The translations under genes were made by a program, and so were the position numbers. Below, in pieces: positions 7,190 through 10,845 of a stretch of 12,571 nt of DNA (position 1 is its first letter; every line of letters begins with the position of its first letter). Under the pieces are notes generated by a model. That model saw only the letters and a list, made by a program, of their open reading frames with translations. It made no database searches and had not been told where the DNA came from. Source of the stretch: Bdellovibrionia bacterium (lineage in GTDB: Bacteria; Bdellovibrionota; UBA1018); contig JBMSSC010000083.1 of assembly GCA_049424145.1 (NCBI GenBank), positions 1 to 12,571 on the forward strand, read 5' to 3'.

Positions 7190-8302
7190 TTAGGCTGCCC
7201 GATTGAGCTCTGTGGGAGCGGGGGTTGAATTTTTTACTTTCGGGTTTCTAAAAGCACTGGCTTTGATCTGATGTTTTCTTAAAAGTCTTAAGAAGTTGCT
7301 TCGGTCTAGGCCTGCTTTCTGAGCGGCATGGGTCACGTTGCCTTGGGTTTTTTCAAGGAGTGTCGTGAGGTACTGCCGTTCGAATGAATCGGACCACTGT
7401 TTTTTAAGCTGCATGAGGGGTTCGAGCTCGCGCTGAGCTAGGGGTAATCGGGTCGGTGGTTGTTCTAGTGAGGAAGAGGTTGGGCTTAAGAGGGTTAAGG
7501 TGGGGAGTCCTAAGCCATGGGGAGGTAGCGGTGTTTTTCCGGATTGGAGCAATGAAACACGCTGAAAGACGCTTTTCATTTCCAGTTCATTGCCGGGCCA
7601 GGGGTATTCTAAGATCACCTGCTCGGCCTCAGGGGAGAATCCTGAGAAGGGCTTTCCTAGAGCTTGAAAAGCGAGGTTGCCATAGAAGTGAGCCAAGGGG
7701 AGGAGGTCTTCTTTTTTCTCGCAAAGAGCGGGTAGGATCAGGGAAACGGAGCAAAGACGGTGGTATAGACCGCCTAAGAATTGGCCTTGTTGAACCTGGG
7801 TGCTTAAATCCATAGGGGATTGCGTGATCATTCTCAGGTTCATGGGGATGCGGCTTAATCCCCCGATGCGTTGAAAAGATTGGCCTTCTAAGGCGCGCTC
7901 CAGTTGCTTTTGAATGGAAAGAGGAAGTTTTTCCACGTGTTCTAAAAAGATCGTTCCTCCGGATGCGGCTTCAAAAAGTCCCCGCTCAATCTGGTGCCCA
8001 TTTGGGGTGACTTGTTCCGTTCCAAAGAGGGTGCGCTCAAAGTCCCCGTCCGATTCCAGGAGAGCGCAATTCAGGGCGATAAACGGCTGTTCTGCCCTTC
8101 GTGAGCCTTGATGGATCATTCGAGCAAGGCTCTCATGAGGAGCTCCCAGGGGGCTTTCTATGAACACGAGGGGTTCGGGTTGGTGTTCGTTTAAAGCCTG
8201 ATGCCTCAACTCCGCAATCCGGTGGTACACGGTGATCATGGCTTGGGATTTTGAGGAAAATAAAGGCTCATCTTCGCGATGGGGAAATAAAATGGGTTTC
8301 AT
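7190..8302 (-). CDS. Sigma54-activator (NtrC/Fis family)-like AAA+ protein with Fis-type HTH and degenerate catalytic motifs
   Basis: Retains ARMIH, PFIALNCA, LFG, GLFEAASGGTIFL, RIGG, LYHRL, YPWPGN and the HTH GNVTHAAQKAGLDRSNFLRLLRKH. Walker A, Walker B and GAFTGA are altered. No N-terminal sensor domain. Confidence 0.9.
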   Translation of the reverse strand: MKPILFPHREDEPLFSSKSQAMITVYHRIAELRHQALNEHQPEPLVFIESPLGAPHESLARMIHQGSRRAEQPFIALNCALLESDGDFERTLFGTEQVTPNGHQIERGLFEAASGGTIFLEHVEKLPLSIQKQLERALEGQSFQRIGGLSRIPMNLRMITQSPMDLSTQVQQGQFLGGLYHRLCSVSLILPALCEKKEDLLPLAHFYGNLAFQALGKPFSGFSPEAEQVILEYPWPGNELEMKSVFQRVSLLQSGKTPLPPHGLGLPTLTLLSPTSSSLEQPPTRLPLAQRELEPLMQLKKQWSDSFERQYLTTLLEKTQGNVTHAAQKAGLDRSNFLRLLRKHQIKASAFRNPKVKNSTPAPTELNRAA

Positions 8303-8356: not shown

Positions 8357-8848
8357 TTAAAGTGAAAGATCAAGGTCTTGTTTTTCTTCAGGTTTTTTAG
8401 TGGATTTCCAGCGAATGGCCGTTGCCTGGGTCAGGATCTGTCCTTCCGCTCCATCGTCCGAGCACTCCGGTGTGGGGTAGGTCTCTCGCCGTCCATCTTC
8501 TAAGAAGACCACGGATCGAACATCGATGACCGCTTGCCCTCCTTTTTTTTGAGCAAGCTTCACTAAGGTCTCCACCGACTCGTTAAATGCGTTCTGACAG
8601 AGATCCCCCTCCTCGTGTTGGTCGTCTAGGGAAATGAACTCCACGCGCGAGCGCACGGTTCCTAGCACCTCATACGGGCGCTTGACCGGGCCAATAAAGG
8701 CCATTCCTTTGGGAAAAGAATGAGGGGTAAATCGAGGGGCGGGAAGCGAGCTGCAACTGAGGCCAAGCAGGCTCAGGAGGAGCCAAACCTTAGGACTCAA
8801 GGGTTCATGGGGCATCCATCCGCCGTGGGTAGTTTCGTTTTGAGTCAT
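8357..8848 (-). CDS. Putative lipoprotein with a YbjQ/UPF0145-like domain
   Basis: Lipobox-like LLGLS-C. RPYEVLGTV...LVKLAQKKGGQAVIDVR...ATAIRW resembles YbjQ-like domains. Two additional Cys. The start codon is uncertain. Confidence 0.7.
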   Translation of the reverse strand: MTQNETTHGGWMPHEPLSPKVWLLLSLLGLSCSSLPAPRFTPHSFPKGMAFIGPVKRPYEVLGTVRSRVEFISLDDQHEEGDLCQNAFNESVETLVKLAQKKGGQAVIDVRSVVFLEDGRRETYPTPECSDDGAEGQILTQATAIRWKSTKKPEEKQDLDLSL

Positions 8849-8856
8849 CGCTGCTC

Positions 8857-8886
8857 AGTGTACACCGGAGGAAAGGCTTTTGACAA
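8857..8886 (-). promoter_or_regulatory. Candidate sigma70 promoter for the lipoprotein gene
   Basis: Minus strand TTGTCA (8886-8881)-18 nt-TACACT (8862-8857), ending 8 nt before ATG 8848. Confidence 0.5.
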
Positions 8887-8911: not shown

Positions 8912-9014
8912 TAAAAGCAGTAAAGGACCCGGAGGAGCTAGCCTCAAGGTCCTTTATCGCCACGGGAACCCCATCAGTGTGTGGGGGGGGGAAGTGGGAG
9001 TCCCCATGGAAACT
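8912..9014 (-). ncRNA. Candidate small regulatory RNA with C-rich loop and intrinsic terminator
   Basis: Stem 9009-8995/8973-8960 encloses the loop CUUCCCCCCCCCACACACUGA. Second stem UAAAGGACC..GAGG-CUAGCU-CCUC..GGUCCUUUA followed by UUUU. Has its own promoter-like elements upstream. Confidence 0.6.
8913..8959 (-). terminator. Intrinsic terminator hairpin
   Basis: TAAAGGACC (8921-8929)/GGTCCTTTA (8948-8956) perfect arms with an inner GAGG/CCTC pairing. Minus-strand TTTT at 8916-8913. Confidence 0.65.
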
Positions 9015-9020
9015 GAGCGC

Positions 9021-9081
9021 AAGTTATCCGATCCGATGTCAGCTGACAAGAGAAAAAAACACTTTTTTTGAATTTTTTTTT
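9021..9081 (-). promoter_or_regulatory. Sigma70-like promoter with UP-element-like A-tracts and a palindromic operator
   Basis: TTGTCA (9049-9044)-17 nt-TAACTT (9026-9021). Palindrome TGTCAGCTGACA at 9037-9048. A/T tracts at 9051-9081. Confidence 0.55.
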
Positions 9082-9103: not shown

Positions 9104-10048
9104 TCAGGGGAGGAAGCTGTGGTGGGAAGCATTTTGCTGACATTCCTCCACCTCGGCTTGCGTCAGGCCGATTTCCTCTCGAGCCACCTGAATCTCATGC
9201 GGTAGACTCACCCCAAAAATACTCGGATCATCCGTGTTGATGCAGACGGGGACCTGAGCCCTTAAAGCCAGAGGAAGCGGATGAGCCTTGAGGCTGGGTA
9301 CCGCTTGAGTGAGCCAGTTACTCGTGGGGCACATCTCCAGGCAGATCTTCCGAGTTTTGAGCTCCTCAATGAGCAGGGGATCTTGAAAACTCTGGATCCC
9401 ATGACCAATGCGCTCGGCCCCTAGAAGCTCCAAGGCTTCCCAGACGTTTTCCGGTCCACTGGCCTCGCCCGCATGCACGGTGATGCGCGCTCCAGTTTTT
9501 TTAGCCCTCTGAAACGACGATTCAAAGAGTCGACAAGGGAATTGAGCCTCATTTCCAGCGAGATCCAGCCCAATGAACTCATCTCGGTGCCGTAGGAAAA
9601 AATCCACAGTCTGATCCACTCGCTCCGCCCCGTAGTCCCGGCTGGCGATACAGATTAACCCTGCCTGCATCTCTGGGTAATGCTGGATTCCTCGTTGAAT
9701 TCCCTGACGAAAGGCCAACAGCACGTCTTCAAAGGAGAGTCGGCTAAATTCGCTCACAAACTCAGGGCTATAGCGAAACTCCACCTTTCGGGTTCCTTCC
9801 CTAAAGCAGTCCTCCACGGCTTCAAATCCCACCTGCTCAATCACCTCGGGCCGATCCAATACCTTCTGATATAAGGTGAACTGCGCTAAGACCTCACTCA
9901 AATTCGATAGAGGCTTTCTTAGGACCTGCTTTTGTTCAAAGGCTTGCAGACTCGTGCTCTGAGCCTCAAACCCCCGCTCTTGAGCGAGCCTTAAAAGCGT
10001 GCTGAGTCGCAGGGAAACATCCAGATGCCGATGCAGTTCCGTCTGCAT
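9104..10048 (-). CDS. add: Adenosine/adenine deaminase family protein
   Basis: ELHRHLD (HxH metal ligands), EFRYSP, GLDLAGNE, TVHAGEA, RIGHG, EMCPTSN, INTDDP. Exact substrate unverified. Confidence 0.9.
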   Translation of the reverse strand: MQTELHRHLDVSLRLSTLLRLAQERGFEAQSTSLQAFEQKQVLRKPLSNLSEVLAQFTLYQKVLDRPEVIEQVGFEAVEDCFREGTRKVEFRYSPEFVSEFSRLSFEDVLLAFRQGIQRGIQHYPEMQAGLICIASRDYGAERVDQTVDFFLRHRDEFIGLDLAGNEAQFPCRLFESSFQRAKKTGARITVHAGEASGPENVWEALELLGAERIGHGIQSFQDPLLIEELKTRKICLEMCPTSNWLTQAVPSLKAHPLPLALRAQVPVCINTDDPSIFGVSLPHEIQVAREEIGLTQAEVEECQQNASHHSFLP

Positions 10049-10845
10049 TAGGCGCCCATGATGTGGGCACCGCTATCCACATACAAGGTTGAGCCGGTGA
10101 TGTGTTTTCCCATCGGAGAGCAGAGAAACGCAGCCAGCGTTCCCACGTCTTCGCCGTCAATGGTTTCATGAAGCGGGGTTTTCTCCTCCGCCGACGAGAG
10201 CATGGATCTGAAGTTCTTAATCCCAGCAGCAGCCAGGGTCTTAATGGGACCCGCTGAAATCGCATTGACCCGAATCTTCTTGGACCCCAGATCATAGGCT
10301 AAGTAGCGGACACTGGCCTCCAATGCGGCCTTCGCAACACCCATGACATTATAGTTGGGGACTACCTTCTCGGCGCCATAGTAGCTTAGGGTCACAATCG
10401 AGCCGTTTCTGCCTTCCATCAAAGGTTCAGCGCGTTTTGCCGTGGCCACGAGCGTGTAAGCACTGATGTCCAACGCCAGCTGAAACCCCGCACGTGAAGT
10501 ATCGACGAATCGTCCTTCTAAGTCCTCTTTATTGGCAAAAGCAACGGAGTGAATGAGATAATCTAAGTGTCCCCAGCGAGTCTTGATTTTTTCAAACAGC
10601 GCATCAATCTGAGCGTCATCCGAAAGATTGCAAGGCTCAATGATTTCAGCTTGGACGGATTCCGCCAGAGGTCTCACTCGTCTTTCTAAAGACTCCCCTA
10701 AAAAGTTAAACGCAAGCTTGGCTCCTCCCTGATGAAGTTCCTTAGCAATGGACCAAGCTAAGCTCCGCTCATTGGCCACGCCGAGAATGAGGCCGGTCTT
10801 TCCTGCAAATAAGTTTTCAAATCGTTTTTCTGTTGGATTCATCAT
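10048..10845 (-). CDS. fabI: Enoyl-ACP reductase (NADH)
   Basis: GVANERSLAWSIA, HSVAFA, LSYYGAEKVVPNYNVMGVAKAALEASVRYLA, NAISAGPIKTLAA. GGGAG Shine-Dalgarno upstream. Confidence 0.97.
   Translation of the reverse strand: MMNPTEKRFENLFAGKTGLILGVANERSLAWSIAKELHQGGAKLAFNFLGESLERRVRPLAESVQAEIIEPCNLSDDAQIDALFEKIKTRWGHLDYLIHSVAFANKEDLEGRFVDTSRAGFQLALDISAYTLVATAKRAEPLMEGRNGSIVTLSYYGAEKVVPNYNVMGVAKAALEASVRYLAYDLGSKKIRVNAISAGPIKTLAAAGIKNFRSMLSSAEEKTPLHETIDGEDVGTLAAFLCSPMGKHITGSTLYVDSGAHIMGA

Follow-up and report, generated by a model that had tools for sequence, protein, structure and literature searches.

A previously uncatalogued family of small structured RNAs with a conserved C-rich loop in Bdellovibrionota

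Organization of the locus

Through analysis of a 12,571-nt contig of a Bdellovibrionia bacterium (JBMSSC010000083.1, assembly GCA_049424145.1; hereafter the window), a short element has been located on the minus strand, between the adenosine deaminase gene add and a gene of 163 residues. On comparative grounds this element is predicted to be a conserved, non-coding RNA gene of about 100 nt. Its parts are listed in Table 1; the promoter, the stem, the 21-nt loop with its run of nine C, the second hairpin and the U-tail all lie where a preliminary description of the window had placed them. The −35 and −10 hexamers are separated by a spacer of 17 nt and followed by the discriminator GCGCTC at 9020-9015. 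The start site, an A at 9014, is placed from the position of the −10 box, and a TTTT at 8916-8913 closes the predicted transcript, giving 102 nt overall.

Table 1. Features of the RNA locus and its neighbourhood (positions within the window)
Feature	Position	Strand	Evidence or remark
Predicted RNA gene, ~102 nt	8913..9014	-	Model R1 match 8913-9017, E 8.6e-18
5' arm, stem 1	8995..9009	-	Changes on both sides in 9/11 modelled pairs; 94.9% of cells paired
C-rich loop, 21 nt, putative functional element	8974..8994	-	C9 at 8983-8991, then AC repeats
3' arm, stem 1	8960..8973	-	Covariation alignments
Hairpin 2, long, probably a bidirectional intrinsic terminator	8917..8959	-	Changes on both sides in 13/16 pairs; 97.9% of cells paired
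U-rich tail, first part able to pair back and lengthen hairpin 2	8913..8924	-	Sequence and folding
−35 hexamer TTGTCA	9044..9049	-	Homologs mostly TTGCnn
−10 hexamer TAACTT, weak here	9021..9026	-	Homologs mostly TATAAn; missed by consensus scan
A/T-tract, putatively UP-element-like	9050..9080	-	T-tracts ahead of TTG in most homologs
add, adenosine deaminase, usual upstream neighbour	9104..10048	-	Pfam A_deaminase
Enoyl-ACP reductase-type gene (fabI), upstream neighbour when add is missing	10048..10845	-	Pfam adh_short_C2
163-aa gene downstream	8357..8848		No Pfam match
Separate promoter-like site before the 163-aa gene, outside the RNA	8857..8886	-	Promoter scan

Taken by itself, the source genome makes a modest case for an RNA gene. 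The folding z-score at the locus is −2.1, with 4 of 200 shuffles equally good, and a consensus scanner called neither the promoter nor the terminator of the RNA there. The minimum-energy fold of the exact predicted 102-nt transcript (−43.7 kcal/mol) contains the long stem and leaves the C-loop open; when the flanks are added, the minimum-energy fold hides the C-run in two small hairpins. The RNA gene is accepted here because its homologs settle the case that the source genome alone leaves modest.

The preliminary description had seen no ORF in the element. Literally this does not hold, as 17 codons are open from an AUG within the 5' arm (9007); in functional terms it does, the AUG being kept in just 24 of 61 homologs, and a leader peptide has been rejected on this count. 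A perfect 12-bp palindrome at 9038-9048, unique in the genome, overlaps the −35 box; it was considered as an operator and rejected, 12-mer palindromes being present upstream of only 2 of the 61 homologs. Beyond the 163-aa gene, at 7190-8302 (minus strand), the window encodes a sigma54-activator-like protein with a Fis-type HTH, in which the Walker A and GAFTGA motifs look degenerate. Six loci or more have a homolog of this protein close to the RNA and oriented toward it.

Distribution of the RNA

When a 261-nt query was used in blastn, only its central stretch of about 100 nt was matched, in 17 of 24 genomes of the same family and, elsewhere in the order, in 1 of 16 genomes. We take this order to be UBA1018 of GTDB. 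A covariance model, R1, was built from 19 copies; of the 116 genomes of the order that were searched with it, 61 have one strong copy (E ≤ 2.2e-8). These comprise 54 of the 75 genomes of family f1 and 7 of the 41 genomes elsewhere (f4, f5, f6, f11 and f12); in the source genome the match at 8913-9017 is the sole strong copy. Eight further, diverged copies were found by hand, which gives 69 carriers overall, and the RNA family occurs across eight families of this uncultured order. In one of these copies (genome G074), at a syntenic site, both stems have been replaced, and the promoter, the loop and both neighbours are kept. Another, in genome G031 of family f8, lies behind add; when the region behind fabI/add was inspected in 10 genomes without a match, the RNA was recovered in this genome only. 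The remaining six belong to family f10 (6 of 19 genomes) and occupy a different locus, common to them, with promoter, long stem, invariant C-rich loop and terminator; they score weakly (26-34 bits), and their homology rests on anatomy. An uncertain candidate in genome G018 was left out of the carrier count.

Outside the order, R1 gave no strong match in 126 genomes of the phylum and weak matches in four of them (E ≥ 1.7e-4). Weak matches of genus g53, family f7 and genomes outside the order were rejected, the inspected ones being terminator hairpins that lack the stem of the C-loop. In 185,579 species genomes a pattern scan returned 30 matches, 29 of which are labelled Bdellovibrio, Bdellovibrionales, Bdellovibrionia, Bacteriovoracaceae or Oligoflexia and one 'bacterium'. 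All 26 metagenome matches were full-length copies, and no phage copy was found in the viral contigs scanned. A loose pattern search stayed at chance level overall, among the matches listed. As a separate observation, a C-rich stretch directly before a terminator was noticed at L130:1437-1544 (G106) and L097:1501-1573 (G188, outside the order); these are possibly 3'-end sRNAs, or due to chance.

Covariation and the conserved loop

Analysis of the 61 strong copies, aligned by fitting to the model, indicates that 96.7% of cells pair and that 22 of 27 pairs carry changes on both sides, an unfitted alignment of 19 sequences giving 14 of 27. None of 500 shuffles reached 22 of 27, and slid controls dropped to 28-52%. 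At one pair CG and UG are exchanged in a ratio of 37 to 24; such wobble exchanges determine the strand and speak for an RNA rather than a DNA cruciform. In 47 of the 61 copies it is the sense strand that has the better fold. Both a search for homologs in relatives and a covariation check had been proposed in the preliminary description, and both came out in favour of an RNA with conserved loop and stems.

The loop shows the following features: (i) a C-run of 4-12 residues among the 61 copies; (ii) a predicted unpaired probability of this run above 0.7 in every copy; (iii) the motif U-C5+-A in 57 copies; (iv) persistence through complete turnover of the stem, as seen at the syntenic G074 site and in the six f10 genomes. 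The AC-repeat part is replaced in other families, CACAC being mainly confined to family f1.

Promoter and gene neighbourhood

A sigma70 promoter pattern, TTG[CT]nn-17-TA, is located upstream of 51 of the 61 homologs, compared to 3.1 expected from shuffles, and sits 8-38 nt from the stem. Across 65 loci the upstream neighbour is add in 41 and the enoyl-ACP reductase-type gene fabI in 8; other genes stand there in 5 and none was identified in 11. In 49 of these loci add or fabI lies directly ahead of the RNA on the same strand.

On the downstream side a homolog of the 163-aa gene is found in just 2 of 65 loci. The downstream genes vary, and 18 of the 24 identifiable ones converge on the RNA, so that no consistent same-strand gene follows it. 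A riboswitch, an attenuator or a leader-peptide element of the downstream gene, to which the hairpin abutting a terminator and the short ORF of the source genome might point, is therefore excluded as scarcely credible; the poorly kept AUG and the promoter-like site owned by the downstream gene also speak against it.

On the upstream side, a scan of the locus placed no terminator in the interval from add to the RNA promoter, and read-through from add is therefore likely; it probably also ends at the terminator of the RNA. Hairpin 2 is of a type (AAAGG...CCTTT) that recurs at other terminator-like sites in the lineage. Together with the 49 loci just behind add or fabI, these observations would suit an element that is simply the 3' end of a fabI-add mRNA, a terminator with a stabilising hairpin and no separate RNA. 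However, the RNA has its own conserved promoter, promoter and loop move together to unrelated neighbourhoods (5 loci, and the six f10 loci), and a terminator has no need of a conserved C-loop hairpin. We regard this explanation as very improbable, and a role as a mere add terminator as unlikely.

The covariation, the conserved promoter and the variable downstream context lend strong support, by sequence comparison, to a structured RNA that is transcribed on its own and whose C-rich loop is conserved and single-stranded, in line with the unannotated sRNA with dedicated promoter and terminator that had been proposed for the locus. Structure, strand, promoter, loop accessibility and independence of the downstream gene are thereby established by comparison.

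Comparison with known RNAs

At the gathering thresholds of Rfam 15 no match was obtained for the window, for 19 further loci including diverged homologs, or for locus L395; the RNA does not belong to a known Rfam family. At E ≤ 10 the RNA region gave just two off-target matches (E 7.9 and 9.4). The source genome has a 6S RNA on another contig, and tmRNA and tRNAs were called by ARAGORN; none of these classes was found at the RNA locus in the Rfam scans. The lack of tRNA, SRP and riboswitch hallmarks noted in the preliminary description agrees with the Rfam, locus and downstream-context evidence. Two features of trans-acting sRNAs with a C-rich loop are present: an own promoter and terminator with no conserved ORF, and a conserved C-rich seed predicted to be single-stranded.

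RepG of Helicobacter pylori is a two-hairpin sRNA. Its C/U-rich loop binds G-repeats of variable length, as described in PMC8295292; that loop is the terminator loop, whereas the C-loop of the new RNA lies in the 5' hairpin, and, unlike RepG with its G-repeat, the new RNA has yielded no conserved target. The 6C RNA of Actinobacteria, according to PMC6486639, pairs with mRNAs through C-rich loops without Hfq or ProQ and is likewise a stem-loop RNA conserved across a large clade. It has several C-rich loops, whereas the new RNA, from a different phylum, has one C-loop and a terminator hairpin whose loop is not conserved; the two or more C-rich hairpin loops and the Rfam match that define 6C were not found. 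Cyanobacterial Yfr1, as described in PMC2190773, has 54-69 nt and two stem-loops with an invariant unpaired motif between them. The resemblance lies in the two stem-loops, in a conserved unpaired motif ending in CACAC after a core similar to an anti-Shine-Dalgarno sequence, and in a clade-wide distribution with secondary losses. The new RNA differs in its length of about 100 nt, in the position of the motif inside a hairpin loop and in a pure C-run of variable length; its motif is not the invariant 11-nt motif that stands unpaired between the two stem-loops of Yfr1. Attack-phase sRNAs and merRNA of Bdellovibrio bacteriovorus, intergenic and from the same phylum, are reported in PMC3627812 as not conserved beyond that species; the new RNA is set apart from them by this reported range and by the lack of a strong R1 match in the 126 phylum genomes outside the order.

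The 4.5S RNA (RF00169) shares the length of about 100 nt, the single copy and the strong promoter, and within the order the two RNAs show complementary distributions. In contrast to 4.5S RNA, the new RNA has neither the domain-IV motif nor the tetraloop and forms two hairpins, not one rod. A diverged SRP RNA was accordingly considered and rejected: fold and locus are different, there is no Ffh partner, and neither RF00169 nor RF01854 is matched. In close relatives all 10 loci of the 4.5S RNA lie next to a dnaX-like gene, whereas the new RNA adjoins add/fabI.

Family f10 has yet another conserved structured RNA (L370-L378, L384), which is about 210 nt long and includes a terminator and a C-rich stretch. 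Four f10 genomes have two copies each (e.g. G043:C6 near 539600 and G043:C11 near 552000), one upstream of a gene presumed to be smc-like and one converging on a gene presumed to be ung-like. It gave no Rfam gathering match at four loci and bears no clear likeness to the 6S RNA of the source genome.

A paper search, with most subscription journals and supplements outside its reach, found neither a description of the RNA nor a clade-wide sRNA report in Bdellovibrionota. The main texts of two motif surveys do not mention Bdellovibrio (PMC8632094, PMC11109978); their supplements could list the RNA. We regard the RNA as a real, previously uncatalogued family of a known functional kind, the function being proposed by analogy.

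Proposed mode of action and target analysis

The preliminary description had proposed a trans-acting sRNA directed at G-rich or Shine-Dalgarno sequences. This is the best reading by analogy with 6C, RepG or Yfr1 and one that we hold to be somewhat better than evenly balanced, in the form of a C-rich loop that pairs, independently of Hfq and ProQ, with G-rich sites in mRNAs. From its own sigma70 promoter and intrinsic terminator a stand-alone small RNA would be produced, in which two long hairpins would shield both ends of the transcript and present one single-stranded, pyrimidine-rich and C-rich loop. The loop would nucleate G-C pairing with G-rich stretches (ribosome-binding sites of the GGGGG type, G-runs) in several mRNAs and so may lower their translation or stability, with neither chaperone taking part. 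Expression, pairing with mRNAs and repression are what we infer.

Several properties of the source genome bear on this proposal. Hfq and ProQ were not found in it (95% complete; this genome only). GGGGG is enriched at ribosome-binding positions, with 82 occurrences compared to 12 upstream, and two relatives have a canonical 16S tail. The variable length of the C-run fits G-runs as targets more readily than it fits a single fixed register.

None of four target tests yielded a positive signal. Strong loop duplexes are no commoner at start regions (97/2209) than inside genes (92/1998), and no commoner with the loop than with the reversed loop (54 versus 51 of 2113). The perfect 12-nt complement of the loop occurs in the source genome only at the RNA gene, and among 20 non-self loop-complement sites in relatives none has the anatomy of the RNA. 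Genes for membrane proteins are not enriched for G5 ribosome-binding sites (6/168 versus 63/1527, p=1). These results apply to a target scan of one full genome, with one candidate followed across species, and to gene starts from a simple caller, so that sites were possibly missed. Such blank tests are partly to be expected, because weak sites for a C-run seed would be numerous.

Two candidate targets were rejected. Pairing with the flagellin leader is specific to the source genome, 2 of 72 leaders reaching −18 kcal/mol or below in a check of 30 of the 109 genomes with a match. The best site in the 16S decoding region has −18.1 kcal/mol, a value equalled by 58 of 60 shuffled loops.

Two further observations were made on these sequences. 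The flagellin leaders L280-L309 contain, across the family, repeated A(C/A/U)GGAGG words, which in our judgement resemble CsrA sites. The strongest predicted loop duplex (−28.1 kcal/mol) is that of a PALP-ACT enzyme gene of the source genome (G000, C33:6353-7585, minus strand), whose ribosome-binding site consists of ten consecutive G, possibly a phase-variable tract.

The blank target tests leave room for a protein-binding or decoy RNA, in which the open C/CA-rich loop would be the ligand of an RNA-binding protein and the hairpins its scaffold. Rho prefers C-rich single strands, and KH-domain proteins are another candidate type of partner. A single copy, an rRNA-like promoter with an A/T tract and the tolerated variation in C-run length would be in keeping with such a role. 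No protein gene travels along with the RNA except fabI/add, however, and with 21 nt the loop is short for the loading of Rho; we consider a protein-binding function rather unlikely, and the pairing sRNA is retained as the preferred reading.

Apparent absence of the signal recognition particle

In silico analysis of the source genome revealed no match to the small or the large SRP RNA (RF00169, RF01854) anywhere and no Ffh M-domain. Its best SRP54-type GTPase match (93 bits) adjoins a FliA-like gene; we take this match to be FlhF, and FtsY therefore seems to be missing too. Within the order, Ffh was found only in families f2 (10/10) and f7 (2/2), with 4.5S RNA in 10 of those 12 genomes, whereas Ffh (PF02978) and 4.5S RNA were undetected in the other 104 of 116. 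Outside the order Ffh is present in 123 of 126 genomes of the phylum. By these searches a large SRP-less clade of about 100 genomes, 2-5 Mb in size, appears to exist. An SRP-less state is known for Leptospira (bioRxiv 10.1101/2022.11.21.517368). The paper search, which left out most subscription journals and supplements, found no description of SRP loss in the lineage, and signal recognition is not mentioned in the available text of a 2026 paper on the class (PMC13200544).

The 69 carriers of the RNA all fall within the 104 genomes without detected Ffh, and none of the 12 SRP-bearing genomes carries it; the 123 Ffh-bearing genomes outside the order likewise belong to the set without a strong RNA match. 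Suppressors of SRP loss in E. coli work by slowing initiation (PMC7844537), which makes a compensating role conceivable: an abundant RNA would dampen or delay initiation at G-rich sites or route mRNAs to the membrane. Against this, no copy was found in 35 of the 104 SRP-less genomes, several of them 96-98% complete; these are 9/9 of genus g53, single f3 and f9 genomes, 13/19 of f10 and 11 other f1 genomes. Membrane-protein genes lack the G5 enrichment, loop pairing with 16S rRNA is at chance, and the RNA does not stand at the 4.5S locus. Both traits may stem from one ancestor, and the overlap may be one ancestral coincidence, that is, a single data point. An adaptation to SRP loss is thus judged improbable, and the sRNA pairing with G-rich mRNA sites is kept as the preferred interpretation.

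Significance

The RNA family offers a natural test of chaperone-free pairing through a C-loop outside Actinobacteria and Helicobacter. The side result, an SRP-less clade, may matter as much as the RNA family itself. If the RNA is tied to the loss of SRP, it would bear on how membrane proteins are inserted by bacteria without this particle. There is a small chance that the RNA originated together with the loss of the entire SRP pathway in a large Bdellovibrionota clade and makes up for that loss; such an RNA would leave membrane proteins enough time to get to the translocon in cells that have no Ffh, 4.5S RNA or FtsY.
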